A stretch of DNA of 35,147 nt from a virus (taxonomy: Duplodnaviria > Heunggongvirae > Uroviricota > Caudoviricetes), in the IMG/VR virus record IMGVR_UViG_2802429245_000015. One strand, given 5' to 3'. Shown here one piece after another: positions 1 to 35,147 of the stretch. The translations under genes were made by a program, and so were the position numbers. Numbering within the stretch: the first letter of the stretch is position 1; the number at the start of each line of letters is the position of its first letter. A model generated the notes under the pieces. It saw nothing but the letters and a program-made list of their open reading frames with translations. It was not told the origin of the DNA and did not search any database.

Positions 1-738
1 TCACTTCGGGTATGGCTGAATCCTGAATAGCTTGGTGTTTAGGCGCTTTTTTGCACGCTTATTCAGGAATCTGATGTAGCGATATTGATTAAATTTGTGT
101 ACCACGGCCCGCTCCTTATTAGCCCGCAAATACACGCCTCGTTGCCCTCCACGCTTAATCGCGTTCATCGTTATCTCGTGATACCACTCGCCGTCCAGCT
201 CGTAGAACGTGCTTTCATGGCTGCCAATAAAATCAAAATTCGACGCCTGATATACCACGCCTGCACGTCCGCAACGTTCGTCTGCAAAGGACTGAACCCA
301 CTCCACTGACGGATACAGTAACCTGATGGTTTTCAGCGCGTAGCTGATGGCCCGTGATTCAGAGTTGCGGGGCATGTCATCGTGTAACCACATGCGGTTC
401 AGTTCCATATAGCCCCGGTTATCCGTTTCAAGCACGACCCGGCGCCCTGAGTTGGGGTTAAGGGCATATCCCCACTGAAGAACACCAACCAGATCACGTC
501 CGCTGAATACGCCCAGATGCAGGTAGGAGTTATTCACAAAACGGCGGGAATAATGCTTTGTCTGAATGATTGTGCGGGCCAGCCAGCAGGATATGGTTTC
601 AACACGCAGCTCCTTTGAACCATAACCGACAATACGGCCTTCATACTCAATAACGCAGGGTTTTGTCAGAATGCGTGATTTCTTCTCTTTTCCCACAATA
701 CAGCTCCGTGGGATGCTCTTTGGCATTCGATATGACAA
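1..738 (-). CDS. mom: Mom-like DNA modification protein (anti-restriction adenine modification); true start probably downstream of 738
   Basis: 245-codon ORF with its stop at 1-3; begins inside the 3' end of com, as mom overlaps com in Mu; last gene of the late region. Assigned by synteny and size, not by a recognised motif. Confidence 0.6.
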
Positions 739-832
739 TGTAACGTTTACAGCGAGGACATTTAATTTCTATATGCTTAAAACCTCCTTTAAACAGTAAT
801 TTATTGCAGTTTTTACAGCGAACAGAGTCCAT
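647..832 (-). CDS. com: Com zinc-finger translational activator of mom
   Basis: ATG at 830-832 preceded by GGGGGA; product [61 protein letters not shown] closely matches remembered Mu Com (CxxC...CxxC finger, ...HCGKRE.ITHSD..RY). The track ORF 647-859 carries a 9-aa N-terminal extension. Confidence 0.8.
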
Positions 833-4500: not shown

Positions 4501-4644
4501 GTCGTACTCCCCGCTCTGTGTGGTGACGTGGCTGAAAACACCTTTCAGAATCCCTGCGCGGTTGTGCAGGGAGGTCAGTGTAATGGTTGCGCCGCCCAGC
4601 GGTTCTCCCGTGGGCGTTTTAATCACACCTTTAAGCTGCGGCAT
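1546..4644 (-). CDS. side tail fibre protein (lambda Stf / P2 H-like), about 1032 aa
   Basis: ATG at 4642-4644 with GGAG 7 nt upstream (track ORF extends 14 codons further). N-terminus MPQLKGVIKTPTGEPLGGATITL...YSVRL...VYEDS resembles the Stf N-terminal anchor domain; Ala/Glu-rich coiled coil; motif TPKAVKTVMDETKTKAPLDSPAFTGTPTTPT...SPEALDTLNELAAALGNDP present twice; three about 110-aa DRTxGRLA.PG.FG.G...PGRY repeat domains. Confidence 0.8.
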   Translation of the reverse strand: MPQLKGVIKTPTGEPLGGATITLTSLHNRAGILKGVFSHVTTQSGEYDFPVLPGVYSVRLTQSTQRLSEIGVIRVYEDSTDGSLNDFLGATDIDLRPEALKKFEELAQQAQQSAEKAREHADAAEQARQDTETLAGEIRQDAEEIAGNVQKAEELASETNQNAARAEQAVKDADKIVQKAVDKLGEAATLTGEAKASAEAAAKSEQSAKQHRDEAQRIVDDLKGSNASTTEKGLVQLCSDTDNDSEELAATPKAVKTVMDETKTKAPLDSPAFTGTPTTPTPPDDATGLEMANAAFVRKLLAALVDSSPEALDTLNELAAALGNDPEFATTIMNALAGKQPLSDVLTAISNLEERADNLLCFNQDGNASLSPLSEKARSLLAQATVEAMRNELELKSAAVRDIQTDLYDSTEGRVALPGAFGYGMTDAGARSIIASNIADIARTAHNLHPGRYYTFSTRTEETTGITEIIWLDNGWGDKTSQTATKLVLFFGKDGRILMTVRGDNISAPVTWTNLTPQLGNAAQKDAQENIYDRTEGRLAIPGMFGFGKAFSSIDRTEFKTGADFLRWVKMAKPGRYAVYADTKAVIQGVLFSGVVEIIWPTPNDYPTDDKAYKVIIFYGINGHIYYNRYTGSGYLVGWENLKVDEASLRALIETRAPLKSPALTGTPTTPTPPDDAAGTEIANAAFVRKLLAALVDSSPETLDTLNELAAALGNDPNFATTVTKALAGKQPLNDVLTAVSQITPEENTLPYFSAEGRILLAQLSEKARALLALDTTEAMRTELELKAAATMEPQSDIRDRTPGRLALSGMYGFGQAFASTEALTFDGQADFAEWLKEATPGRYAVSIADSSTLLAGTTKFNGIIDVMWSPFDNDESDTTRKFKMLLCFNQYYEGEHSIHRLTYRWSGNNWNATVSPVIYDGDSLAFLLSRTAGSGSYFKYPAVGVPVLAVYRGTTSGDKEIKIGLGDVVPGSQLGGVNLSCTISSAGAGSYGSTPSAGATGYTFPGRYMALSGVRDSYGTSGRICLFVRIE
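2423..2677. repeat. internal direct repeat copy 1 inside the tail fibre gene
   Basis: Aligns with 3596-3850 at an offset of 1173 bp (391 codons, in frame). Core 2491-2590 vs 3664-3763 differs at about 5 positions by hand alignment. Confidence 0.85.
3596..3850. repeat. internal direct repeat copy 2 inside the tail fibre gene
   Basis: See copy 1; shared core gggtcattgcccagcgccgctgccagctcgttcag...tcaaccagcgcggcgagcagtttgcggacaaa. Confidence 0.85.
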
Positions 4645-5071
4645 CGGGACGCTCCGGCCAGTTGATGGAATTAAAGGAGGCTTCATCGGTAACGGTGCTT
4701 AAATCCAGCGCCTTCAGTGATTTGATATGCGCCATCCACCGCGCCAGACGGGCTTTATCGTCATCGCTGATGATTCCCAGTTCCAGCTCAGTTTTCCAGT
4801 CGGAGGTGATTTCCCTTGCTTCAGCCAGCAGGTGCTGGCGTTGCGTTTCCGCTTTCTGCTGCCAGTTAATTACGGGTTCTTTTAATACCGGATATCCGTT
4901 TTCGCCAGATACAATAATAAAACCGTCAGTCTGGCCCTGTAACAGTCTCTGATATTCTTCATCCGTGATTTCCTGTAAATCATTCGGCCACGTTCCCGCA
5001 TTTTCATAATCACCCTGAAGGCCAGAATGATAAAAACCGTTTGTTGATGGGCTGAAATAAATAGTCATCAT
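4631..5071 (-). CDS. tail fibre assembly protein (Mu U / lambda Tfa-like)
   Basis: 146 aa; N-terminus MMTIYFSPSTNGFY typical of Tfa chaperones; directly follows the short fibre gene; start overlaps its stop. Confidence 0.7.
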   Translation of the reverse strand: MMTIYFSPSTNGFYHSGLQGDYENAGTWPNDLQEITDEEYQRLLQGQTDGFIIVSGENGYPVLKEPVINWQQKAETQRQHLLAEAREITSDWKTELELGIISDDDKARLARWMAHIKSLKALDLSTVTDEASFNSINWPERPDAAA

Positions 5072-5958
5072 TAATACCCTATCGCTGTCCAGTACATAAC
5101 GCCGTTATTCTCGCTGTTGAATGTCGCACCTGCTGCTGATAACGATTTCAGGGAAATAGAGTAATCAGCACGGGTGTATGCGTTGGTAATAGTGATGCTG
5201 GTACATGCTGACGGAAATGATATCGGAAACGTCAGCCCGGCACTGGCATTGCCGAGATACCCCCACTGAATAATCACCCCGGTGGACGTGTCCTTAAACC
5301 AGCCATTACCGGCTTTTGACGCCGTGTTTTTTTGCTGGTAACGGTTGTCACCTTCAGTTTGTGACATTCCCGCAGAAATCGTGATATCGCGGCTGCCATC
5401 AAACAGCACATTGTTAATCCTGCGGGCCGTCTGAAGGCGGGTTGCCGTTCCGGCGTTGCCGCTGATGTTGTTGATGGTGATATCCGACATCAGAGCCATG
5501 CCGTTGACCTTGCGGGTATTCGGTACGGCATTACTGGCTTTATTTACCGTGTCACGTAATGAAAGCGCATTGATAATTTCATCGGCTGTGGTTTTCCCGA
5601 GAATACCGCGCACAAACGCACTGAGCGGCGTTAATGCCATTGTGTCCTTGCCGGTGAAATACGGGAACGTATTATTCTGACCGGTTAATCCGGCAATAGC
5701 TCCGGCTGAACCACTGTTCGTGATAAACAGCTTTTTCAGCGCCGTCATGATCTGGTCGGTGGTATTTTTATCCGGCTTGATATTTGCCTGCCGGAGAATT
5801 TCCAGCAGTTCAGACTGCACGATATTAAACCAGTCCGGCCCCGGATAGGTGGGTGGAATACCATTCCCGCCTTCGGTGAAATAAAGCGTTGTCTTGCTTA
5901 ATTCAGCCGCGACAGGTGGCATTACCGGTACACCCGTCGGATTATCCACATGAAACAT
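5071..5958 (-). CDS. tail fibre protein (Mu S-like, short, 295 aa)
   Basis: N-terminus MFHVDNPTGVPVMPP...TEGGNGIPPTYPGPDWFN resembles the conserved N-terminal domain of Mu/P2-type fibres; followed by a Tfa chaperone. Confidence 0.6.
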   Translation of the reverse strand: MFHVDNPTGVPVMPPVAAELSKTTLYFTEGGNGIPPTYPGPDWFNIVQSELLEILRQANIKPDKNTTDQIMTALKKLFITNSGSAGAIAGLTGQNNTFPYFTGKDTMALTPLSAFVRGILGKTTADEIINALSLRDTVNKASNAVPNTRKVNGMALMSDITINNISGNAGTATRLQTARRINNVLFDGSRDITISAGMSQTEGDNRYQQKNTASKAGNGWFKDTSTGVIIQWGYLGNASAGLTFPISFPSACTSITITNAYTRADYSISLKSLSAAGATFNSENNGVMYWTAIGY

Positions 5959-8049: not shown

Positions 8050-8582
8050 ACGGGCGGTGATGTATTCTCATTGTCGCCGTCCTTATGAATATGTTCGCTG
8101 AAAGATTTGCCGTTGATGGTGATGTCTTCAGTAAAATCACAGGGGCCGACGAATTTCATTTGTCCGCTGATGATATTCAGCAATTCGTCGGCAGTGAGAT
8201 TTACCGCTTTCCCTGAAAAGTCTAATTGTTCTCCTGTGATTTCAATGATGCCGCCTTCCTTCAGGGTGATGTGTGATTTGCCGTCCTGGTGATACAGCCG
8301 GACGTCGCCGGGGGACAGCCCTTTCGGGCGACATCGCTTATCCTCCACCGCGATGGCAACCAGCCCGTCACGCCGCCCGCTAACGGCCAGCACTATGGCT
8401 TCAGAACCTTCCGGCGGCACGGATGTAAAACCGTAGTTCTGGAAGCGTTCCACGTCGTCGTCGGTGGCATCTGCCAGCGTCTGGATTTGCAGGTTCTGCC
8501 GCTCCAGACTGTCAGACACCATGCGGACAATGGCACGGTCAACCATCAACCGCAGACGGCGGGCAATGGCGTTTAATCCCAT
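8046..8582 (-). CDS. baseplate assembly/spike protein V-like (Mu gp45-like)
   Basis: 178 aa; position and size. Confidence 0.55.
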   Translation of the reverse strand: MGLNAIARRLRLMVDRAIVRMVSDSLERQNLQIQTLADATDDDVERFQNYGFTSVPPEGSEAIVLAVSGRRDGLVAIAVEDKRCRPKGLSPGDVRLYHQDGKSHITLKEGGIIEITGEQLDFSGKAVNLTADELLNIISGQMKFVGPCDFTEDITINGKSFSEHIHKDGDNENTSPPV

Positions 8583-9643: not shown

Positions 9644-10917
9644 CAGTCGGTAATCTCCACAGGTTGCGTTGGCAGTATGAATGACGGATGGCGCAGGCGG
9701 TTACGCTGCACGATTTCATCCCGTCGGCTGGTGTCACCATGCTCGCGCCATGCCAGCAATGCGGCAGATGTGGTTGTGGTCAGCGTCACCTGCCGGGTTT
9801 CCGGCAGACGGGCGGCACGCTCGCGGGCATCCGTAATCACGGCCTGCCGTAAATCGCGCAGCGTTCGCCACAATGCCCGCTGGTTATTTTCCACCGCCGC
9901 CACCGCCTGCTCATGCAGTTCAGCCGCCAGCGTGTCACCGGCAGATAATGCCGCATCACTGGTATCGAACGTCATCGAGGCCACGGCATTTGCCTGTCCC
10001 AGCAGGGTTTCCAGCACAACCACCTGGCGGAAGTCGTCAATGTTCTTCTGCAGGCTGTCAGATACCGGCTGATAATCCGGTGACAGCCCGATAGCAAAGC
10101 CTATTTCACCGTCTGCCACGCTGCCGGGCTTCACGGTGATATCTTCCGGCAGTGCGCCGGTGGCAACCTGTCGGGCACGTTCTCCGGCCCACTGGTTGCG
10201 TAATGTCGTGTAAACCGCCAGTGCTTCGGGTGGTTCCGTCACCAGATCAACCACGCCGTCGATGAACGAGGACAGCTCACTGACCAGACGCCCCGGTGTG
10301 GCAATGATGGTTCCGGCCATCTCCTTAAAATGGTTCAGCCTGTCCATCCACTGATTCAGTGCTGCCGGTAACGTGGGCAGATTAGCCACAAGGTTCTCCA
10401 TATCAGCCAGAAAGCTGTCGGCCATCTCACCCAGCCCGTCGAGTGCGCCGAACCAGTCGCCATCGTCAATGGCGGCTTTCACCGCATCAATGCCCGTCAG
10501 CACTTCCTGCTGCGTGTTATCCGCCGCAGACGGGAACAGGCGCTCGCCTGCCTCAAACACTTCAAAGGTGACATACGCAATGCCATCTTCCTCCGTGCTG
10601 AGGCGATGGGTGACCTTGCCAACCTGTACGGTCTGTATCCCGAACCACGGGTGGATAAGCTCGCCGGGGCCTGGGGTATTGAGCGCGTCTAAAAGGGCGT
10701 TTAAATCATCCTGGAAGTTTTTACCCAGCAGCTTTGCGTTAATCTGCTGTTGCCCCGGAACGGCCCCGTTATCATCCGTCCAGGCGGTTTCGCGCCGGGG
10801 ATACGCACGGGGAATAGCCCTGCGGCCACCGGTGCCTTCCGTATCCACCAGAAAGAAGGGGACACCGCGAAACGAGGCGTCGCGCAGCCCGTCCCATTTG
10901 CCTTTGCTTGTTGTCAT
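9643..10917 (-). CDS. DNA circularisation protein (Mu P-like)
   Basis: 424 aa immediately after the tape measure gene. Confidence 0.55.
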   Translation of the reverse strand: MTTSKGKWDGLRDASFRGVPFFLVDTEGTGGRRAIPRAYPRRETAWTDDNGAVPGQQQINAKLLGKNFQDDLNALLDALNTPGPGELIHPWFGIQTVQVGKVTHRLSTEEDGIAYVTFEVFEAGERLFPSAADNTQQEVLTGIDAVKAAIDDGDWFGALDGLGEMADSFLADMENLVANLPTLPAALNQWMDRLNHFKEMAGTIIATPGRLVSELSSFIDGVVDLVTEPPEALAVYTTLRNQWAGERARQVATGALPEDITVKPGSVADGEIGFAIGLSPDYQPVSDSLQKNIDDFRQVVVLETLLGQANAVASMTFDTSDAALSAGDTLAAELHEQAVAAVENNQRALWRTLRDLRQAVITDARERAARLPETRQVTLTTTTSAALLAWREHGDTSRRDEIVQRNRLRHPSFILPTQPVEITD

Positions 10918-17258: not shown

Positions 17259-18161
17259 TTATGCCGGGGTGGTGATGAACGGACTGACCACGATGTCCAC
17301 ATCCTTGTACCAGATGTTGGAATCGCCGCCGTTAACCAGCATGGCGTCAATGATGCGCTTCGCGGCTGCACGGTTTTTCGGCCCCACCACAAGGGTGGTC
17401 GGGCGGATGCCCAGCGGTTCACCGTTGGTGGTCTTCATACCCAGCAGCAGATTGCTGGCCTTCTCGTAGTTCTCCGCTGTCAGTGCCGCACGGGAACCGA
17501 CGGCGGTCTGCCAGAAGCCGAAGCCCGCATTGCAGCGACCGTCCACCCCGTAAAGGAACTCGTTATTCTTGAAGGTGTGCTCGCTGTTCAGATCATCCAG
17601 GGCTTCAAACTTAAAGGCGCGTCGCGTCTGCCAGATGATGGGTTTCAGTACCTGAGAATCATCAATCAGAAACCACGGTTCCCCCTGGTCTGATGCCGGG
17701 GTGCCGACAACGTTGCTGTATGTGCCGTCGCCCAGCGGGTGGTCTTCATCAAAGAAGTTCTGACCGTCAAAACACAGGGTGTTAAACCCGGCACACAGCA
17801 GGGGGTAACACAGCTTGTCCGGGAACTCCGACGTCTGGCGGCCATAGCGTTCAGCGATAATGCTGTACTGACCAATCTGATCGTCTTCAATGTGTTCGCG
17901 TTTAACGCGGATCGAACTTTCCCAGGTTTTGTTCGCAAGGGTGTAACCATAACCGTCCAGCGTTGCCATCTGACGGGCGCTGACCCATTCCTTAATCTCC
18001 GGTAAATCTTTCATCCAGCCGTAGGTATTGGAGGCGGACGAACTCGGGATTTCAGAGGCGATGCGCTGCCACTGTGGGGTGACACCACTCAGCCCACGGG
18101 TATAAGCGGCGCTCAGACAGGTGGTCAGCGCGTGAAGGACTTCGGAAGTGACTGCTCCCAT
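17259..18161 (-). CDS. major head (capsid) protein (Mu T-like)
   Basis: 300 aa, directly after the I-like gene with a 1-nt start/stop overlap, followed by a stem-loop; size and position. Confidence 0.75.
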   Translation of the reverse strand: MGAVTSEVLHALTTCLSAAYTRGLSGVTPQWQRIASEIPSSSASNTYGWMKDLPEIKEWVSARQMATLDGYGYTLANKTWESSIRVKREHIEDDQIGQYSIIAERYGRQTSEFPDKLCYPLLCAGFNTLCFDGQNFFDEDHPLGDGTYSNVVGTPASDQGEPWFLIDDSQVLKPIIWQTRRAFKFEALDDLNSEHTFKNNEFLYGVDGRCNAGFGFWQTAVGSRAALTAENYEKASNLLLGMKTTNGEPLGIRPTTLVVGPKNRAAAKRIIDAMLVNGGDSNIWYKDVDIVVSPFITTPA

Positions 18162-19123
18162 CAGTTATTCTCCTGTTTAGGTTTAGCGGCGAGGAACTCT
18201 TCCCCGGTAATACCCATGCTGCGGCACATCGCCAGTTCGGCGTCGGTCAGTGTCTGCGCGGGTTTATCCTTGCCCTGGCTGGGCTTGTCGTTGTTCACCA
18301 GCGGCTGTGCACCTTTGGTGTACTCCGCAAACTGTTTGCGGCCTTCTTCCGTACGGCAGGTGGCAAGGAACATGTCACGGTTTGCCGGGGCCACTTTTCC
18401 GGCTTCGATGGCCGCATCCACAAGCGCTTCTGCTTCCTTCTCTTCCAGTTGCTGAAGGCGTTGTTCTGCGGTTTCGGCACGGTTCAGTGCCAGATTGTGG
18501 GTTTCCACCGGCACAAACTTCGTCAGATCAGGTGTCTGTGCGCGGTTCAGCGCCACCTGTTCGCTCTCCTGAAGTTGTTTAATGGCGGCCACGGTATCGT
18601 CCACCGTGGCAGATTCAGCCAGCCCAAGCAGGCCGGTGATTTGCACAGGTACTGTCATCGGGTTTTTCTCCGTATTCAGTGCAGGAAAATCCAGGTTAGG
18701 TTTGTTGGTCAGCCCGACGCTGGACAGGCGCGTCACCACACCGTCTGCGTCAAAGAAAAACGCCGGGCTGTAATAGCGGTAACGGCGTTCGCTCAGCATC
18801 CACCGGGCGTACTCGCTCCAGACAACACGGCCTTCAATGGTGCCGCTGTCCGTCACGCGCAGTTCTTCCACCCAGCCATACGCCGGGGCTTCATCACCGC
18901 GTTGCCCTTTAATTTCGGTGGCGTGTTCAATGTCCACCGGAATTTTGATGTCGGACGAACGGGTGACCACCTCATGCGGATTGCGGTTAATCCACGTCCG
19001 GCCATCGCGCCCGGTGAACTCACCCGCAGGGACGAGTTCAAGCCATTCCGGCAGTTGAGCAGGTGTCAGCTCAGGGATGGGTTCTGGCAGGGAAAAACAC
19101 AGCGCCAGCAGTTCCGGTTGCAT
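18161..19123 (-). CDS. head maturation protease/scaffold (Mu I-like)
   Basis: 320 aa with a coiled-coil, charged C-terminal half; position upstream of the capsid gene. Confidence 0.65.
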   Translation of the reverse strand: MQPELLALCFSLPEPIPELTPAQLPEWLELVPAGEFTGRDGRTWINRNPHEVVTRSSDIKIPVDIEHATEIKGQRGDEAPAYGWVEELRVTDSGTIEGRVVWSEYARWMLSERRYRYYSPAFFFDADGVVTRLSSVGLTNKPNLDFPALNTEKNPMTVPVQITGLLGLAESATVDDTVAAIKQLQESEQVALNRAQTPDLTKFVPVETHNLALNRAETAEQRLQQLEEKEAEALVDAAIEAGKVAPANRDMFLATCRTEEGRKQFAEYTKGAQPLVNNDKPSQGKDKPAQTLTDAELAMCRSMGITGEEFLAAKPKQENN

Positions 19124-19172
19124 GTCAGTCTCCGTCGTTTGGGGTTACCGACGGTCAGTATGCGGAAGGCAG

Positions 19173-19198
19173 AAAAAAAGCCGGATTTACCGGCTTCA
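19173..19198 (-). terminator. hairpin plus A/T-run element (intrinsic terminator and/or late-promoter motif), copy 1
   Basis: aaaaaaagccggatttaccggcttca, identical to 26894-26919. On the minus strand this reads gaagccggtaaatccggc followed by T7. Confidence 0.5.
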
Positions 19199-19337
19199 CT
19201 GAAAACGGGAAGAACACCCCCTTCAAAACCCCTTCAAAAACGCCACAGCATCTTCAAAAACGTCTGAGTGCACATTCACGCCATCAGAATAAAAAACGCG
19301 TTTCTGATGCGTTTCAGGGGGATTTACGGCGGGAGGG

Positions 19338-24215: not shown

Positions 24216-24509
24216 TCAGTCCCTCGCACGGGGTTTTTTAACGCCCGGAACGCTGGACAGGCCGTTTGCCACATCCTCACCGCTGCCGGTGATTTCAGCC
24301 ACGTAACAGCCGCCCACATCAGACAGACGAACCAGCCCCTGCTCGCGCAGCCATGCAAGCTGGGTGCGCACCACATCACGGGATACCTTATGACCGTAGG
24401 CCTGAAGGCAGGTCTGCAACACGGATTCATTCGCGCTGTCGCCACAATCCAGCAGGGAACGCAGCAACACCAGACGACGGTCTTCAGTGAGGATCTCTTT
24501 CATCGCCAT
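24216..24509 (-). CDS. hypothetical protein, possible winged-helix DNA-binding fold
   Basis: 97 aa; segment VSRDVVRTQLAWLREQGLVRL looks like a recognition helix plus wing. Confidence 0.4.
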   Translation of the reverse strand: MAMKEILTEDRRLVLLRSLLDCGDSANESVLQTCLQAYGHKVSRDVVRTQLAWLREQGLVRLSDVGGCYVAEITGSGEDVANGLSSVPGVKKPRARD

Positions 24510-24814
24510 TAATTTTTTTCCTTTAACTCGTTCTCTAATAACAAATCGCTGATGCGGGATACCTGGCGGATGGATGGCCCCAGCTCTTTGATTTCTCCCC
24601 GCAGGTTGCTGATATCCAGTTGCAGGCGGTGGAACTCATCACGATCAGGTAGCTGATGTACCTGGCTTTCCATCACCGACACGCGGGAACGCAGCAAATC
24701 AAACTCTTCGCGTTTGACGTAGGTCTTTGCCAGAATCAACTGAAGCAGGTTTATTCCTGTCATCAGCAATGCCCACAGAATGGGCCAGTTGGCTCTGATC
24801 ATTTCCCAGGACAC
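24509..24814 (-). CDS. membrane-anchored coiled-coil protein (possible spanin-type or Mu gp25-like)
   Basis: 101 aa; N-terminal hydrophobic segment WPILWALLMTGINLLQLIL followed by a charged helical region. Confidence 0.4.
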   Translation of the reverse strand: MSWEMIRANWPILWALLMTGINLLQLILAKTYVKREEFDLLRSRVSVMESQVHQLPDRDEFHRLQLDISNLRGEIKELGPSIRQVSRISDLLLENELKEKN

Positions 24815-25026
24815 GTTTTCCTCCTGCGTTCCCGCATCTGCTGACAGTCAATACAGGTCACCACATCCGGCAGCGCCGCAAGGCGCTGTGCCGGAATAAC
24901 GTTCCCGCAGTCATTGCAGAAGCCCCGGCTGTGGGGCGTTTCTTTTGTCCGTGTCTGCCAGGCTTTAACGACGCTCTGACGCTCGTTCAGAACCACTTCA
25001 CTGATGCGATCGATTTCGTCGGTCAT
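24799..25026 (-). CDS. TraR/DksA-family C4 zinc-finger protein
   Basis: 75 aa with CNDCGNVIPAQRLAALPDVVTCIDCQ (CxxC-x17-CxxC) near the C-terminus; ATG overlaps the upstream stop. Confidence 0.55.
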   Translation of the reverse strand: MTDEIDRISEVVLNERQSVVKAWQTRTKETPHSRGFCNDCGNVIPAQRLAALPDVVTCIDCQQMRERRRKTCPGK

Positions 25027-25631: not shown

Positions 25632-26200
25632 GAATCCCCCTTATGAAAACGGCGCTGATGTTTATAAAGTGCCGCGCAAAAAATACCGCCCAGCCAGAAC
25701 GCCAGCTGATAAGGCTCCTTCAGATAAAGAATGCCGAATGTCAGCATGAAAAAACCAACGGCCCAGACCACCCATGACCACACGACAATTCGAAGGGAGG
25801 CGGCCCGGAAACGCCTTTTGGGCTGCAGGCGATAAGGTACGTTGCCCAGCTGGAAACTGTGAATCAGGCAGAGTGTCGCGCCGTATGCCAGCACCATGAC
25901 CGCAAACGCCCGCCATCCGGCAAAACAGCTCGCCAGAAAAAGTACTGCCGACAGTCCCAGAAACGACCACTGGCACAACATAAAGCGGGAGTAAATAACG
26001 CGAACAAAAAGACTATTCATTCTGTGCATTGAGTTTTTCCTTGTACTTCTGGCACTGCCAGAAAATGTCCCGTGTATCCACGGAGTTCCAGCCACGCATG
26101 TAGTAGCTGGCGTGTGTGCCATCATGGCCGGTATAGTCCAGCGGTTTCGGGGGCGGACCTCCGGCCATGCGGTGCAGAACCTCCTGGCGCAGGCGGTCAC
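25619..26200 (-). CDS. multi-pass membrane protein; real start probably the internal Met near 26029
   Basis: Several hydrophobic helices (FLGLSAVLFLASCFAGW, AFAVMVLAYGATLCLI, IVVWSWVVWAVGFFMLTFGILYL); the long N-terminal extension overlaps the neighbouring ORF. Confidence 0.4.
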   Translation of the reverse strand: MTACARRFCTAWPEVRPRNRWTIPAMMAHTPATTCVAGTPWIHGTFSGSARSTRKNSMHRMNSLFVRVIYSRFMLCQWSFLGLSAVLFLASCFAGWRAFAVMVLAYGATLCLIHSFQLGNVPYRLQPKRRFRAASLRIVVWSWVVWAVGFFMLTFGILYLKEPYQLAFWLGGIFCAALYKHQRRFHKGDSWIR

Positions 26201-26240
26201 GCCGCCCGGCTTTCAGTGAGGCATCCCAGCCTTTGCCCAT
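26013..26240 (-). CDS. hypothetical small protein
   Basis: 75-aa ORF starting just after the endolysin stop. Confidence 0.35.
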   Translation of the reverse strand: MGKGWDASLKAGRRDRLRQEVLHRMAGGPPPKPLDYTGHDGTHASYYMRGWNSVDTRDIFWQCQKYKEKLNAQNE

Positions 26241-26241
26241 A

Positions 26242-26838
26242 TCACCCCCGCGTGGCGGACATGATGCCTAAAGGGGTATCGATGATTTCCAGACAGGCGT
26301 CGGTCAGCTTTTCCATGCGGTTAAACCAGCCGTTCAGGTATTTTCCCTGGGCGGGGTTTGATTTGATGATGTCGGCATAAAAGCGGGAACGACGGACAAT
26401 GCAACGGGCCAGCAGCCAGTCCGGGGTGGACAGACTCACGGCCTTACGGGTACGCGGACCAATGATGCCGTCAGCATCCACATCAGCGGCTTCCTGCAAA
26501 ATCCTGATGGCTTTTTTAACGCCATGCTGAACCGCCGCATCGAACACAAACATCGCCACGCCATCAGGCCACTGGTCACATCCGGCAGGCAGCCAGTAAT
26601 CGCGCCAGTAAATCTGCGCAACCTGTTCGCGGGTTAAATCCTTAATGCGGGTATCCGGTTTGCCGTCGCCGTTGACATCGGTTTTGCCGTCAATCACACC
26701 GTCGCGGCGGTCAGAAATGCCGTATTTGGTTTCGCCGCCACGGTCAGTGGGGTCATTGACATAAACGCCTTCGATATCAGGACGCAGAATAAAATTCAGC
26801 GCATGCTCAAAGGCCGGGGAGAATTTTTGATTTTCCAT
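26242..26838 (-). CDS. endolysin, glycoside hydrolase family 108 with C-terminal peptidoglycan-binding region
   Basis: 198 aa; motif EGVYVNDPTDRGGETKYGI is the GH108 N-terminal signature; ATG at 26836-26838. Confidence 0.8.
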   Translation of the reverse strand: MENQKFSPAFEHALNFILRPDIEGVYVNDPTDRGGETKYGISDRRDGVIDGKTDVNGDGKPDTRIKDLTREQVAQIYWRDYWLPAGCDQWPDGVAMFVFDAAVQHGVKKAIRILQEAADVDADGIIGPRTRKAVSLSTPDWLLARCIVRRSRFYADIIKSNPAQGKYLNGWFNRMEKLTDACLEIIDTPLGIMSATRG

Positions 26839-26849
26839 AAAAGCACCTG

Positions 26850-26878
26850 TGAAGCAGATTTAAACGTGGTCTGCTTCA
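26850..26878 (-). promoter_or_regulatory. dyad/hairpin in the endolysin leader
   Basis: tgaagcaga (26850-26858) / tctgcttca (26870-26878) with an 11-nt loop, ending 9 nt upstream of the endolysin Shine-Dalgarno/ATG. Confidence 0.4.
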
Positions 26879-26893
26879 TGGTGCCGGAGGCAT

Positions 26894-26919
26894 AAAAAAA
26901 GCCGGATTTACCGGCTTCA
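26894..26919 (-). terminator. hairpin plus A/T-run element, copy 2 (intrinsic terminator after mor, comparable to Mu t9.2)
   Basis: Identical 26-mer to 19173-19198, starting 5 bp after the mor stop. Confidence 0.55.
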
Positions 26920-26923
26920 TTGA

Positions 26924-27373
26924 TTAAGGGCGTCGTGGCGGACGACGAACGGGGTGAGGCAGGTTCGGGGAGTGGTAAAACAAATCCGGCTGGTATTTAT
27001 TACGCTCCAGACGTCGCATCCGTTTGATGGCCTTGTAGACGGTTTTATACGTCACCCCATAACGCTGAACCAGTTCAGGAATATTATGGCCGTTAAAATC
27101 ACGCCAGATACGCATATCCCGGACAAGATTCTCCAGAATATTCCCCCTAGGAACATAAACCTGCATCCCGCCGATATGGCGACAAATCGCCACAACCAGC
27201 TCAATGGAATGAGCAGGGTCTGCGCCAATCCGGGCCAGCTCTTTACGCAGCAGTGCGTTCAGTTCAGAAAGTAACGCCGGATAAGCGGTGTTTTCCTGGT
27301 AATCGTTAAGGTATTCCAGAACGCTGTCGTCCCGGAAGTCTTCGAATAAATCCTGCTCTTTCATCTGTTTCAT
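26924..27373 (-). CDS. mor: Mor middle-operon transcription activator
   Basis: 149 aa; ...FEDFRDDSVLEYL...YPALLSELNALLRKELARIGADPAHSIELVVAICRHIGGMQVYVPRG...RDMRIWRDFNGHNIPELVQRYGVTYKTVYKAIKRMRRL matches remembered Mu Mor, including the C-terminal helix-turn-helix. Confidence 0.8.
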   Translation of the reverse strand: MKQMKEQDLFEDFRDDSVLEYLNDYQENTAYPALLSELNALLRKELARIGADPAHSIELVVAICRHIGGMQVYVPRGNILENLVRDMRIWRDFNGHNIPELVQRYGVTYKTVYKAIKRMRRLERNKYQPDLFYHSPNLPHPVRRPPRRP

Positions 27374-27921
27374 ACAGCAATTCTCCCGCTGTTTCGTGCG
27401 CGGGCATATGCACTGGTCAGTGCATCATAGCCGCGCAGTTCCCGCCCGGATGGGCTTACAGGTAAAGGCACACCATGTCGGGCAAAGGCTTCCCGGATGC
27501 AGCGCATATGCCACTGTTTGAGCGTTTCGAGCACAACATGCAACGATTCCCCGTGACACCAGGCCAGCGTGGAAACACCCTGACCACCATTACGTCTGGC
27601 CGTCAGGCGTTCAACGTATTTGTCCAGCGCGGCGTCGCTGATATCGGAGACGAAACCATCAAGAAACATCTGCTGCCAGATTTTATAAATCTTCTCGCGC
27701 GGTGTGACATGCCCCTTAAAGCGACGGCGGGGATGTTTTTTCTGCTTCTTAAAACCGCGCTCTTTCATGGCATCGAGCACCTGTTCCAGTTGTGCGACAG
27801 TCAGTTCGCGGCAACTGGTCTTGCCTGTGCACTGCACCAGAAAGGCGCGGTAAGTGTCATCGTCGAGTTGTAGATCACGACGGGCAACATGGATTAATTT
27901 AATCAGGGATGTGCGACTCAT
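27370..27921 (-). CDS. gemA: GemA-like protein (Mu gp16 family)
   Basis: 183 aa immediately upstream of mor with overlapping stop/start; N-terminus MSRTSLIKLIHVARRDLQLDDDTYRAFL fits the gp16 family pattern; GGAGG RBS. Confidence 0.55.
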   Translation of the reverse strand: MSRTSLIKLIHVARRDLQLDDDTYRAFLVQCTGKTSCRELTVAQLEQVLDAMKERGFKKQKKHPRRRFKGHVTPREKIYKIWQQMFLDGFVSDISDAALDKYVERLTARRNGGQGVSTLAWCHGESLHVVLETLKQWHMRCIREAFARHGVPLPVSPSGRELRGYDALTSAYARARNSGRIAV

Positions 27922-27993
27922 AATCGTACCTCCGAAAAGGGGCGGTGCTGCAACACCGCCCGTACTATTGATAACACTGAAAATGGAGACGAC

Positions 27994-28233
27994 ATGTCTG
28001 TAGAAAACAATGCGTCAATCACTTTTAATCTGGTTTCGGGTCTGATGTTGAAACTTGTCCAGAACAAGACTCTGACAAAGGGGGAAGCTCAATCCATACT
28101 GGCCTCAGCAATTCTTGAAAACATTCAGAACCGGGAGGGCGTTACGGATCTTGATCTTCATGCGCTTCGTCTGAAACTTGCTATGTCTGATTTCAGCGTT
28201 GAAAAAGAGCCTCCACAAGACGCTCAGGCGTAA
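27994..28233 (+). CDS. hypothetical 79-aa protein on the opposite strand to the early operon
   Basis: ATG at 27994 with GGAG 5 nt upstream; fills a 270-bp gap with no minus-strand ORF longer than 18 codons; AT-richer than flanks; 3' end overlaps the convergent 93-aa gene by 41 bp. Confidence 0.4.
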   Translation: MSVENNASITFNLVSGLMLKLVQNKTLTKGEAQSILASAILENIQNREGVTDLDLHALRLKLAMSDFSVEKEPPQDAQA

Positions 28234-28474
28234 TCACGTCTGATGGTTTAAGCCCCAGCCTGCGGCGAATAAATTCGTCGCGGGCTTTTTTGTTATCCAG
28301 TGAAACTTCATCTGCAATAATATTAATTTCATGCTGGATAATATTCACAGTAACACGCGCAGACAGCCCTTCACGGATAGCAATATCAATAATATCGCGC
28401 ATACGCTCAAGCATTTTAGCCTTCACCAGTTCTTCATCCAGATCTTTGGGGATAAATGTGATTTCATCGTTCAT
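28193..28474 (-). CDS. hypothetical 93-aa protein
   Basis: ORF in the AT-richer segment; charged, helical. Confidence 0.45.
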   Translation of the reverse strand: MNDEITFIPKDLDEELVKAKMLERMRDIIDIAIREGLSARVTVNIIQHEINIIADEVSLDNKKARDEFIRRRLGLKPSDVITPERLVEALFQR

Positions 28475-28794
28475 TTTGCAGTTCTCAGAATAAATTCAGG
28501 ATAAAAATTCATACTCATTTGCTGTAATACATTCAACGCGGCAACCGCAGCCTGCTTATCATTCCCTTTGGCTATTCCTTTTAATTCTCTGATAATCCAT
28601 GCCGGGCTAAGCGCCTCAGCCATTTCCAGTCGGGCGTCGTTAAAAAGCAATAGCTCTGCATCATCATGTTTTTCGTCTTCCAGATAAGATACGAGCTTAT
28701 CCGCTGATTCCCTGCTCATTCCGCCAGCCATCAATGTGGCCCGAAACTCCGCATGCAGGGTTACTTCTTGTGTTATCATTTCATTCACCTTCAC
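28471..28794 (-). CDS. hypothetical protein (about 102-107 aa; ATG at 28777-28779 or GTG at 28792-28794)
   Basis: ORF; its ATG lies 2 nt after the stop of the upstream zinc-ribbon ORF. Confidence 0.45.
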   Translation of the reverse strand: MKVNEMITQEVTLHAEFRATLMAGGMSRESADKLVSYLEDEKHDDAELLLFNDARLEMAEALSPAWIIRELKGIAKGNDKQAAVAALNVLQQMSMNFYPEFILRTAK

Positions 28795-28930
28795 AATTCA
28801 CGCATGCCGTGTCATCGCCCATATCGCAGTGGTTGCATTTCTGCTCGCCACAATAAGGGCACTCTTTCAGATATTCAGGGACTTCATTACCGCAGGCCGG
28901 GCATTCCTGCTTTTCGTTTACGTTATTCAT
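28781..28930 (-). CDS. small double zinc-ribbon protein (49 aa, four CxxC pairs); absent from the ORF track
   Basis: Hand translation: MNNVNEKQECPACGNEVPEYLKECPYCGEQKCNHCDMGDDTACVNCEGE; GAGGAGG 9 nt upstream of the ATG at 28928-28930. Confidence 0.5.
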   Translation of the reverse strand: MNNVNEKQECPACGNEVPEYLKECPYCGEQKCNHCDMGDDTACVNCEGE

Positions 28931-29105
28931 TCCTTAATACCTCCTCGCAATAAAAGATTTCACTGGGATAACGTTTTTGTATGCGCTCCATCACCTGCAT
29001 ACATGACTGCTCTGTGGGCCAGATTTTTTCCGTTACGGGTATGGCATCACAGGCATCATTCCCGCAGGTGCCAACCAGCAGGACAAAGCCAATTGACTTA
29101 ATCAC
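28923..29105 (-). CDS. small Cys-rich, probably exported protein (about 60 aa from GTG 29103-29105)
   Basis: GTG preceded by GGAG at 7-nt spacing; MIKSIGFVLLVGTCGNDACD... has a signal-peptide-like N-terminus with a non-canonical lipobox; four further Cys. The track lists a longer 78-aa version (28923-29159). Confidence 0.4.
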   Translation of the reverse strand: MIKSIGFVLLVGTCGNDACDAIPVTEKIWPTEQSCMQVMERIQKRYPSEIFYCEEVLRNE

Positions 29106-29382
29106 TGCTCGTCTCCATCTGTTCCAGGCGCTGCGCTTCGCGCATACACAGCTGCGCAATCATCATCTGGCGGGTAATGCCTGCACGAATAAACGAAGCT
29201 GCGCGACGGAGATTTTTTGCATTCGCCTGTTGAATCAATGCAGGTACTGATGCCAGACATTCGGCGCTGTCTTTAATCAGCGTTGCTGCTGTTATTTCTG
29301 TTTTTTGTCGTTCACTCTTTGTGGTCATAAACATCACCATTTCAGATTCAGGCGCGAGCAATCCCCTGACGCATCGCGCCAT
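29098..29382 (-). CDS. hypothetical protein (up to 94 aa; start uncertain)
   Basis: First ORF downstream of gam. Confidence 0.45.
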   Translation of the reverse strand: MARCVRGLLAPESEMVMFMTTKSERQKTEITAATLIKDSAECLASVPALIQQANAKNLRRAASFIRAGITRQMMIAQLCMREAQRLEQMETSSD

Positions 29383-29422
29383 AATTAAAAGAAAGTGAAT
29401 TAATTAAATATTCGTGGTGATA

Positions 29423-29947
29423 TTAAATACCGGCTTCCTGTTCAAACGGAATAATAGAAAAATCTTCAATGCCCGATTTAACTGTAATTCCGGCAACACC
29501 TGCGACCGCTTTCGGTTCCAGTAAAATCGCTTCCTTGTTGATTTCCTGTTTCGTGCGAATAAAGCGTTGCAGGCCAAGACGCTCCAGCGTTTCCATCACC
29601 GCATCCACACCGCGAATACTTACCGATGGTGGGCGCTGACGCCATGACACATCGCCGGTTACCAGGTTCGCCGTCTTCACCTTGCCGCCGTTCGTCAGTT
29701 CGTCACGGTTCGCTTCACACCACCCCTGAACGCCTTTTGAAAGGGTTTCAATACTGGTTTTAAGGGGCGCAATCTGTGAGGCGTATTTCTCCGTAATCTC
29801 AGCGATAGCGTCATTCATTTCCGTTTCAAGTCGTGCTGCTTCGCGTTGCAGGTCACCAATCCGGCGGATATCACATACCACGGCATCGCGGGATTGCGGA
29901 ACATAAGCCGCTGCGGCGTTCTTGATTCGTTTTGCTGGTTTAGCCAT
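29423..29947 (-). CDS. gam: Gam host-nuclease inhibitor (Ku-like DNA-end binding)
   Basis: 174 aa; MAKPAKRIKNAAAAYVPQSRDAVVCDIRRIGDLQREAARLETEMNDAIAEITEKYA...GITVKSGIEDFSIIPFEQEAGI matches remembered Mu Gam along its length. Confidence 0.85.
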   Translation of the reverse strand: MAKPAKRIKNAAAAYVPQSRDAVVCDIRRIGDLQREAARLETEMNDAIAEITEKYASQIAPLKTSIETLSKGVQGWCEANRDELTNGGKVKTANLVTGDVSWRQRPPSVSIRGVDAVMETLERLGLQRFIRTKQEINKEAILLEPKAVAGVAGITVKSGIEDFSIIPFEQEAGI

Positions 29948-29967
29948 ATAAATAAAGCTCCTGTTAA

Positions 29968-30267
29968 TTAATATTCGCTGTATACAATGCTGGATACAGC
30001 ACGATTGCTTAATTCCATCTTTTGGGCAATGACATGAATAGCCAGCCCGTCTTTATAAAGTTCTCGACACAAATATTTGTCGTGCTCACTGATTCGATAT
30101 GCACACAACGATATTCCGTGCCTTCTGGCGTGTGCCCGGAGGGCGGTTGTGGCAACGTTCAGTTTTTTCGCCATTTCCTCGACGGTCATTTTCCCGACAC
30201 TGGCTTCGATAAATTCCCGGTCTTCGCGTGACCAGCGTTTACGCTTACACATCATTCCGGTCACCAC
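29968..30267 (-). CDS. small helix-turn-helix DNA-binding protein (likely ATG start at 30253-30255, about 95 aa)
   Basis: Two HTH-like segments (MTVEEMAKKLNVATTALRAHARRHGI and LAIHVIAQKMELSNRAVSSIV); basic N-terminus. Confidence 0.5.
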   Translation of the reverse strand: MVTGMMCKRKRWSREDREFIEASVGKMTVEEMAKKLNVATTALRAHARRHGISLCAYRISEHDKYLCRELYKDGLAIHVIAQKMELSNRAVSSIVYSEY

Positions 30268-30687
30268 TCAGTACAACAGGGGTTCGCGCAGTGATGCCGG
30301 AATATGCCGCAGCGATAACTGAACCGCTTTCAGGGCAAGGGAAGAATACGTCCCCTGCGTCCAGCCTTTCGCCATTTGCCGGTAATCGCGCCAGATGTTC
30401 TGCCACTGCTCCCGTGCGTCCGGGTCTGACGCGCTGATGTATTCTCGGCCCATGACGTATTCCCATAAATCCACATTGAAGGCATTGCCAAACGTAATGG
30501 CGCGGAATACCGCCTCCCCGCAATAACGCGCACAAATGCTGTAATGGTCGAATGCAATCAGGTAAGTCTTTTCGCCATACCCCTCAACTTCGCGCGCGCA
30601 AATAAATTCGCGCAAGTCTCCGCCATTGTTATTACGCATTTTGATTCGAATTAATGCCTGGATTTCGTTTCTGATTTTGGCGTTCAT
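30268..30687 (-). CDS. hypothetical 139-aa early protein
   Basis: ORF with AGGAA RBS 8 nt upstream of the ATG at 30685-30687. Confidence 0.45.
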   Translation of the reverse strand: MNAKIRNEIQALIRIKMRNNNGGDLREFICAREVEGYGEKTYLIAFDHYSICARYCGEAVFRAITFGNAFNVDLWEYVMGREYISASDPDAREQWQNIWRDYRQMAKGWTQGTYSSLALKAVQLSLRHIPASLREPLLY

Positions 30688-30701
30688 TGTCAGCGTTCCT
30701 T

Positions 30702-30965
30702 TCAGTGACGTGTTCCTTCAACTGTCGCTTCTGTGACACTGCCACCCGAAATGACGCCATCATTTTTCAGTATTTCAATGGCCTCATGGGCTGACTCGCG
30801 AACGATATCCCGGCTTTTTTCCAGAACCAGTAACGCTATCGCACCAGCAAGCGTGTACTCATCACCATCCAGTTCTGCGCTGTGGTCCACGTTAACATTG
30901 GTGCGTAAATGCTGCCCTTTAACTTCAGATGTCACATTTTTGATTTCGATAATGACTTTTGCCAT
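30702..30965 (-). CDS. hypothetical 87-aa acidic early protein
   Basis: ATG at 30963-30965 with GAGGA 8 nt upstream (track ORF extends 18 codons further without an RBS). Confidence 0.45.
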   Translation of the reverse strand: MAKVIIEIKNVTSEVKGQHLRTNVNVDHSAELDGDEYTLAGAIALLVLEKSRDIVRESAHEAIEILKNDGVISGGSVTEATVEGTRH

Positions 30966-30997
30966 TTTGTTATTCCTCACAAATAAATAAGCCGTTA

Positions 30998-34622: not shown

Positions 34623-35147
34623 ATGATGTCTTTTGAAATCAAAGAATGGTTTAATGCGAAAGAGCTGGAAGGGATGCCTGGTGTACCAAAGTTGGCGACT
34701 AACATTACCAGGAAAGCTGTGGCGGAAGATTGGGTAAAACGTCAGCGTCACGGTGGGAAAGGTGTCGCTTATGAGTATCACATCAACAGTCTGCCAGAAG
34801 AAACACGTAGGGCCATTAAAGGAACCTCACTTTCTGATAAACCAGTGCATACATCAATCGCCCATACAGTTGATGAGAGGCTAATTTATGCAATGAGCTT
34901 CTTAACACCAGATGAGCAGGCCGCAGCTGTGGAGATCATTCGTGTAGCAGGGATTAAAGGACTTATGCCTACAATTGTCAGTAAAGATAAGGCATTAGAG
35001 GCATTAGGGATTACTGTGGAGCAACAGAAAACCCTGCAAACTCTTCAGGCATTACCACCGGAAAAAGTAAGAGAGATTTTGTCTCAGTATGAAGGCAAAG
35101 AACATAATTTCCCTGCAAGAGAAAACGATGTAAAGAAAGCCGTATAA
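34623..35147 (+). CDS. c: prophage repressor c (Mu/D108 Repc-type)
   Basis: 174 aa, divergent from ner; C-terminus ...LPPEKVREILSQYEGKEH...KKAV resembles Mu repressor; N-terminus [26 protein letters not shown] is homologous to the A N-terminus in this window ([26 protein letters not shown]). Confidence 0.75.
   Translation: MMSFEIKEWFNAKELEGMPGVPKLATNITRKAVAEDWVKRQRHGGKGVAYEYHINSLPEETRRAIKGTSLSDKPVHTSIAHTVDERLIYAMSFLTPDEQAAAVEIIRVAGIKGLMPTIVSKDKALEALGITVEQQKTLQTLQALPPEKVREILSQYEGKEHNFPARENDVKKAV

Follow-up and report, generated by a model that had tools for sequence, protein, structure and literature searches.

The Mu-like prophage analysed here (IMG/VR record IMGVR_UViG_2802429245_000015; the window, in what follows, is the whole stretch of 35,147 nt) has one gene of the Mor/C family of transcriptional activators, mor, and no second one. 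In the textbook cascade of phage Mu, Mor activates the middle promoter, and the C protein made from it activates the late promoters. Elements resembling the Mu middle promoter, Pm, are repeated in the window at the heads of late gene blocks. On comparative grounds we consider it likely that the lytic cascade of this prophage has two steps, with the early operon supplying Mor and Mor activating the late operons directly, without C.

The window holds a complete prophage on the minus strand. The mom stop codon stands at one end (position 1) and the repressor gene (34623-35147, plus strand) at the other, so that no phage gene lies beyond the window edges. The gene set consists of ner, transposase A, B, gam, gemA and mor, followed by lysis, packaging, head and tail genes, com and mom. 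Early-region DNA (27422-30977) is ~85% identical to Mu, D108 and SfMu, which makes the wiring schemes comparable base by base, while the late region mostly lacks such DNA identity to these three phages. A prophage 97.8% identical to the window is present in Escherichia coli PSS-15, where the halves of a split host gene flank it on either side, confirming that the whole gene set is inside the window; it has one annotated Mor-family protein only.

Of 5,426 complete E. coli genomes, at least 46 contain a prophage with 90% or more identity over the queried stretch. About 1-2% of complete E. coli genomes carry the lineage, which is found in Salmonella also. Intact ORFs in identical gene order are seen in no fewer than 46 complete genomes of E. 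coli, and again in Salmonella and six further genera, and Klebsiella phage Kp4866-3, deposited as a phage genome, has a layout that matches that of the window prophage. Some other properties of the window were recorded along the way. Rfam gave zero family matches anywhere in it. A supposed disrupted gp11-like gene at 28.8-29.4 kb was rejected, as this is merely gene content that differs from PSS-15. The tail-fibre gene (1546-4686, 1,046 aa) contains a 254-nt direct repeat (2423-2676 and 3596-3849), the copies being 83% identical and at a distance of 1,173 nt; a third copy near 4325 is partial and weaker.

The initial annotation had reported that no C gene lies between mor and the lysis gene or elsewhere in the late region, and searches by three routes agree. 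A six-frame search of 788 stop-to-stop ORFs, using a Mor plus C hidden Markov model (HMM) and also Mu C and Mu Mor singly, returned mor only (next E at least 0.8). When a 22-sequence Mor/C profile was compared by hhalign with 33 small ORFs, mor scored 100% probability and the other 32 scored at most 1.1%. Pfam scans of 30 ORFs gave no Mor match besides mor. Two small ORFs that had been named as places where a C homologue might be hiding, 24216-24509 and 29968-30267, are not C homologues by profile search (hhalign 0.1% each). The described geometry is also correct: mor ends at 26924 and the endolysin gene starts at 26838, leaving a gap of 85 bp (26839-26923) in which a hairpin begins 5 nt past the mor stop codon.

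Binding sites for C were sought as well. The C-type box was taken as TTAT-N5-6-ATAA with right half CATAACCCC, located at about -52 to -34 in Mu late promoters. Matches to CATAACCCC with at most one mismatch number 9 in the window, where 7.2 are expected, and none is found before a late operon.

The missing C gene had been regarded as unusual, a view that does not survive a wider count. Among 77 phage records with a Mor/C match, 63 show a single place, and two copies are confined to 14 records, all of the Mu genus, although a very divergent paralogue could escape the tblastn search behind these figures. Since only those 14 carry two copies, absence of C seems usual, and thus ordinary, among Mu-like phages outside the Mu genus.

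By its identity of 61% to Mu Mor, against 31% to Mu C, the protein encoded in the window is a Mor orthologue and not a C orthologue. It matches the Pfam Mor family (PF08765) at 106.7 bits (cut-off 24.9) over profile positions 3-107 of 107, and PHROG 532 (late transcriptional activator) with E = 1.2e-40. Residues 94-121 give weak matches to HTH_28 and HTH_23. The base contacts of C are made by S110, Q113, Y115, Q116 and R120 (bioRxiv 10.1101/2025.05.02.651988); at the aligned positions window Mor has T, T, Y, K and R, the same as Mu Mor and unlike C. The beta-strand linker of the family, after which comes a C-terminal HTH, has invariant G, G, Y, P and G, at C residues 70, 71, 75, 77 and 79 (PMC2582627), and the aligned linkers read IGGMQVYVPRG in window Mor, LGGGQVYIPRG in Mu Mor and LGGRQFYIPCG in Mu C.

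Clamp-binding Mor/MuC proteins carry the near-consensus QL[SD]LF, with QPDLF the C-terminal consensus of the family (PMC12867686). Window Mor shares QPDLF with the C-terminal clamp-binding motif of MuC, whereas Mu Mor reads QPSLL at this place, and it has EQDLF at its N-terminus. The QPDLF of window Mor may have a role in clamp binding. With 149 aa, window Mor also differs from Mu Mor in a 20-aa proline/arginine-rich tail. This extension of ~17-20 aa after QPDLF (YHSPNLPHPVRRPPRRP; residues 130-149, 26924-26986) is carried by the E. coli/Salmonella sublineage of Mor, and Mu Mor and the relatives from Klebsiella, Serratia and Kluyvera are without it.

Table 1. Features of the window discussed in the text
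Feature	Coordinates	Strand	Description
com-mom module	1..832	-	Coding DNA 89% identical to Mu; similarity stops at the com start codon
-10-like hexamer C'	8170..8175	-	TATCAT, 23 nt past box C'
Candidate Mor box C'	8199..8214	-	AGGGA-AAGCGG-TAAAT, inside baseplate V (gp45 homologue); PWM 24.1
Head protease/scaffold (Mu I homologue)	18161..19123	-	PF10123 Mu-like_Pro_N on orthologue; first gene after promoter B
-10-like hexamer B	19157..19162	-	CATACT, 22 nt past box B
Mor box B	19185..19200	-	AGTGA-AGCCGG-TAAAT, at the position of Mu PI; PWM 37.4
Mu gp26 orthologue (winged HTH)	24216..24509	-	61% identical; hhalign vs Mor/C 0.1%
TraR/DksA zinc finger	24799..25026	-	Lysis/late operon; Pfam zf-dskA_traR 42.3 bits; PHROG 54
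Mu E18 (gp18) homologue	26013..26240	-	phmmer E = 2.5e-32; blastn 72% identity to Mu
GH108 endolysin	26242..26838	-	Pfam Glyco_hydro_108 + PG_binding_3; PHROG endolysin; first gene after promoter A
-10-like hexamer A	26878..26883	-	CACCAT, 22 nt past box A, equal to the Mu TATCCT spacing
Hairpin + T7	26894..26918	-	Putative early-operon intrinsic terminator; 5' arm and loop overlap Mor box A
Mor box A	26906..26921	-	AATGA-AGCCGG-TAAAT, predicted -51 to -36 of the lysis-operon promoter; PWM 34.4
mor	26924..27373	-	149 aa, last early-operon gene, sole Mor/C-family activator gene
QPDLF motif	Mor residues 128-132		C-terminal; seen in alignments
Early HTH protein	29968..30267	-	89% identical to the Mu product at Mu 5482-5778; hhalign 0.1%

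In Mu, the 77 bp 3' of mor contain a predicted terminator and the Mor-dependent Pm. The published description of the Mor box is of two 5-bp inverted repeats separated by a G/C-rich 6-bp spacer, with the centre at -43.5. Because GenBank promoter coordinates for Mu are approximate only, we derived Mu numbering by combining the Mu sequence with the table of mutants in PMC4390567. On this numbering Pm has the wild-type bases GTAAAC at -57 to -52 (PMC4390567, Table 3); its Mor box, at -51 to -36, is AGTAA-AGCCGG-TTAAT, and its -10 hexamer, at -13 to -8, is TATCCT.

Base-by-base comparison identifies the 85-bp gap between mor and the lysin gene as homologous to Pm. The gap had been described as lacking a Mor/C ORF and holding a terminator; the ORF is indeed lacking, but the terminator is not all that is there. 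With Mu the window shares the placing of mor, which is the last early gene and downstream of gemA, and also the 5-6-5 layout of the box at -51 to -36, its AGCCGG spacer (the right half being TAAAT against TTAAT in Mu), the overlap with the early terminator hairpin, the lack of a -35 hexamer, the distance to the -10 hexamer and an E18 homologue downstream. The hairpin (GAAGCCGG-TAAAT-CCGGCTTT, then T7) folds at -12.6 kcal/mol with z = -4.4, and was terminator-like in our scan. The predicted transcript start of this promoter, promoter A, is near 26870. In relatives the hexamer at this place is CAAAAT, CAATAT, CACAAT, CACTAT or TAAATT.

The genes past promoter A differ from those of the Mu middle operon, E18-E19-gp20-C, at the position of which the window places its GH108 endolysin. 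The first, Mor-dependent, gene of the Mu operon, E18, has its homologue second after the promoter in the window, from which E19, gp20, C, Plys and the lysozyme of Mu are missing. A different arrangement is found in the C-carrying Muvirus Yersinia phage vB_YpM_5 (4197-5987), where homologues of the GH108 lysin (E = 4.6e-98) and of E18 lie between Pm and C. A Mu-type lysozyme comes next, so this phage would carry two endolysins; it looks like a recombinant between the two lineages.

A second copy of the element precedes the gene for the head protease, which carries the annotation phage protease in PSS-15. Exact copies of the 25-mer GAAGCCGGTAAATCCGGCTTTTTTT stand at 26894-26918 and 19173-19197 (0 matches expected by chance), the second falling 50-75 nt upstream of the protease gene. 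The repeat widens to 49 nt at 86% identity (against 26882-26930), stopping one base short of the CATACT hexamer. The two hairpins (26918-26898 and 19197-19177, each -12.6 kcal/mol) are the top minus-strand terminator matches, and no other strong minus-strand terminators were found in the late region. The predicted start of this promoter, promoter B, is near 19149, with the protease ATG at 19123. In relatives hexamer B is CATACT, CACACT or GACACT, spaced 22-23 nt from the box.

Some further repeats surround these two elements. Directly after each -10-like hexamer there is an inverted repeat, at 26851-26877 (GAAGCAGA...TCTGCTTC) and at 19128-19154 (CCGTCG...CGACGG). Mu has TGATGA...TCATCA in the corresponding place (locus L004, about 520-548), and the sequences of relatives before the lysin gene each differ. 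A transcript from the predicted +1 would miss most of the 5' arm, so that any action of the repeat may be limited to read-through RNA or to the DNA itself. Few double changes were seen on looking for covariation, the B-site repeat being conserved mostly in sequence; the A-site leaders are too divergent to align for this purpose. Upstream of Mor box B (19205-19300, minus strand) are conserved TTTTGAAGGGG repeats (GCGTTTTTGAAGGGGTTTTGAAGGGGG), which take the form of TTTGAACGGGG or TTTAAACG variants in relatives. Mu has a central strong gyrase site between its head-morphogenesis genes and its protease gene, and the repeats occupy the equivalent intergenic position.

A position weight matrix (PWM) built from 21 distinct boxes was used to scan for further copies. 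The top three scores in the window are 37.4, 34.4 and 24.1, with the next best at 10.8. The third is box C', inside baseplate gene V and ~150 nt upstream of the gp46-like gene, with a predicted start near 8162. In 200 shuffles the maximum score averaged 7.5 and reached 22.1 in one shuffle, the highest, against 24.1 for box C'. The homologous positions score 18.9 in PSS-15 and 17.5 in Kp4866-3, and the hexamer in relatives is TATTAT or CATTAT. Box C' has neither hairpin nor T run.

Box C' lies in coding sequence, where synonymous sites can be compared. In a comparison of 39 distinct V genes, whose proteins are 58-93% identical, the codons beneath the box keep to its consensus. GGG encodes Gly124 in 38 of the 39, AAT encodes Asn128 in 38 of 38, and Val127 is GTA or GTT only, GTA being used in 0-3 of 39 at the other valine columns. 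Elsewhere in V, conserved Gly, Val and Asn columns mix codons, and the median codon entropy of the other conserved columns is ~1 bit. We regard a third Mor-type promoter inside gene V as probable. The -10-like hexamer C' is bracketed by an inverted repeat in the V coding sequence (8147-8190, minus strand; CCGACGAATT...AAATTCGTCGG), also present in PSS-15.

The modules were compared across 15 loci of eight enterobacterial genera: Escherichia, Salmonella, Klebsiella, Raoultella, Kluyvera, Pluralibacter, Serratia and Brenneria. The identity of their Mor proteins to window Mor is 66-98%. Each locus has one Mor/C ORF within 10 kb either side of mor. The motif GG[TA][TA]AATCC on the coding strand is present in exactly two copies in 10 of 14 relatives, before the GH108 lysin and protease genes. 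In the 15 loci the hexamer 22-23 nt past the box invariably follows xAxxxT, with A as its second and T as its sixth base. Kp4866-3 and PSS-15 have three PWM boxes each, at places homologous to those of the window. In Mu the matrix finds Pm only (31.1; next best 12.1), and in a 15-kb stretch scanned of a C-carrying Yersinia Muvirus, Pm alone is above threshold (30.0).

Four of the loci (L024-L027) have a 159-aa ORF between mor and the element, from which it follows that the element goes with the lysin and late block and not with mor. This ORF, at about 10400-10890 of these loci from some E. coli and E. albertii relatives, overlaps the end of mor, and more distant relatives have a small membrane-protein ORF in its place.

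All three boxes of the window, A, B and C', match the geometry of Pm, with a 5-6-5 box and a -10 spacing of 22-23 nt. The -35 region of the modules reads CCGGCT, which is no -35 hexamer, and their -10 hexamers are weak. In promoters of the Pm type, bases -57 to -52 form the proximal UP subsite, which is A/T-rich and prefers C at -52. In the window these bases are TTAATC (A), GTTTTC (B) and CTTTTC (C'), A/T-rich and ending in C; those of relatives vary. The left half-site is poorly conserved (AATGA, AAGGA, AGTGA, AGGGA). Photobacterium relatives, with Mor ~40% identical, have a plausible AATAA-TCCGCG-TTAAT box with CACAAT before the lysin gene, and in them a convincing second box before the protease gene was not found. 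Looser searches of the window with GCCGGTWAATCCGGC (up to 3 mismatches) and AGCCGGTAAAT (up to 2 mismatches) matched coding regions only, with no promoter geometry; we attributed to chance a near match at 5680-5694 (plus strand) and a 9-mer at ~5939-5947.

No box of either type was clearly recognized before com-mom. In Mu, com-mom strictly needs C. Protein identity to Mu is 96.7% for Mom and 73% for Com. Upstream of com, at 833-955, Mu-like GATC clusters are kept and the sequence differs where Mu has its C box. This interval has no Mor box (PWM below 8; manual 5-6-5 registers misfit) and no clear C box, only a degenerate C-box-like remnant. Since no terminator was found between the tail genes and com, com-mom may be read through from the tail operon. 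In Kp4866-3 com-mom is wholly absent.

In the cascade that we propose, the early operon would end with mor, and Mor would then switch on the late operons from promoters of the Pm type, replacing the Mor to C to late succession of Mu. Each module would consist of an A/T-rich stretch at -57 to -52, the 16-bp Mor box at -51 to -36, no -35 element and a weak xAxxxT at about -13 to -8. Modules of this kind would precede the lysis and packaging block and the head protease gene, and probably another lies inside V. In modules A and B, with the box overlapping hairpin and T run, the element would stop upstream transcription and restart it only with Mor. It is probably both things together: as at Mu Pm, a terminator would be joined to a restart promoter that depends on an activator. 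That the late operons are activated otherwise than in Mu, perhaps directly by Mor, had been suggested in the initial annotation; the Pm-type modules at the late blocks and the chance frequency of C boxes favour this. Mor binding, Mor dependence, the transcript starts and the terminator activity are predictions from the DNA.

Three other explanations were weighed. The element could be an intrinsic terminator only, with the late genes reached by read-through or antitermination from the early promoter or served by unrecognized ordinary promoters. Both window copies are good terminators of the hairpin and T-run type, and in relatives the stem of the second module is kept by compensatory changes (GAAGGCGG/CCGCCTTT, GAAACCGG/CCGGTTTT), which indicates that the hairpin is selected as RNA and that part of the conservation could be terminator function. 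However, conservation extends beyond the hairpin to the upstream A-R-K-G half-site and the A/T-rich stretch, the spacing to xAxxxT is fixed even where the T run is lost (CCACTTTCTTCTCCCC...GACACT), and the third copy, in V, has its box kept through synonymous-site constraint with no hairpin or T run at all. A terminator alone does not account for these points. The element is moreover homologous to the experimentally defined Pm of Mu, where the same bases are the Mor box, and no sigma-70 consensus promoter was found near the sites. We therefore rate this explanation as improbable.

It is unlikely, too, that some other phage protein replaces C or acts together with Mor. The initial annotation had proposed the small HTH and zinc-finger proteins as activators. 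The HTH proteins at 24216-24509 and 29968-30267 were rejected as substitutes for C, as both have Mu orthologues that occur side by side with C. The best candidate is the zinc finger, which is not a Mor/C homologue and lacks a Mu counterpart (it shows no similarity to Mu gp24). All single-Mor relatives examined have it, as far as Photobacterium, whereas Mu and the Yersinia Muvirus do not, and it would be made at the right time from its place downstream of promoter A. It could be a helper, but hardly the activator itself: the lysis and head promoters share one box, so that no second specificity is needed. TraR/DksA proteins work through the secondary channel of RNA polymerase and not as sequence-specific activators. 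The zinc finger also belongs to a lysis cassette that is unlike that of Mu as a whole, and its co-occurrence with single Mor is for this reason not independent evidence. Far less probable than either is a prophage made defective by loss of C, or reliant on the C of a co-resident Mu-type phage. The Mu-like com-mom coding DNA would fit such a history, as would the Pmom-like GATC clusters and degenerate C-box-like stretch upstream of com. Against it are the intact gene order throughout the E. coli, Salmonella and other genomes noted above, the same layout in phage genome Kp4866-3, C-type boxes at no more than chance frequency, and the single Mor/C gene that is the norm among Mu-like phages.

The proposed direct Mor cascade can be set against Mu promoter by promoter. 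Where Mu has one Pm-type promoter, driving E18-E19-gp20-C, the window has two clear copies and one probable copy, and unlike Mu Pm these are predicted to drive the lysis and packaging, head and tail genes directly. They occupy the places of C-dependent late promoters in Mu, two of them preceding the lysis genes and protease gene I and the third falling within a tail or baseplate gene. The intragenic candidate resembles Mu PP but lies in V, that of Mu being in N. The activator is of the same family as C and shares its QPDLF (PMC12867686). The differences from the Mu late promoters are that the window has no C gene, no C boxes above chance, boxes of the Mor type and none found at com-mom. One Mor/C gene by gemA, as in the window, is also the arrangement of BcepMu, Vibrio phage martha 12B12, Pseudomonas phages of the B3/D3112 type and Kp4866-3, but among single-Mor phages the window prophage is unusually close to Mu (early DNA ~85%). 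Our literature search found no paper on late promoters of Mu-like phages that lack C.

A broader interpretation can be offered, tentatively. In close relatives of Mu a bifunctional cassette, with a hairpin that would end incoming transcription and whose 5' arm and loop would make the Mor box of a restart promoter, may stand before each late block, with a single QPDLF-bearing Mor coupling all late transcription to replication, and C of Mu may be a later, genus-specific duplicate of mor with a box of its own; we think this possible but hold it with less than even confidence.

Most Mu-like phages have only one member of the activator family. Absence of C being already ordinary, what is new here appears modest, namely a close relative of Mu that has multiplied Pm-type modules. 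These stand where Mu has C-dependent promoters, so that the rewiring can be read. The system would open to test whether a single activator is enough, what the C tier contributes to timing, which residues and bases separate the specificity of Mor from that of C, and what the clamp motif does in a single-activator phage. The result refines known biology rather than surprising.
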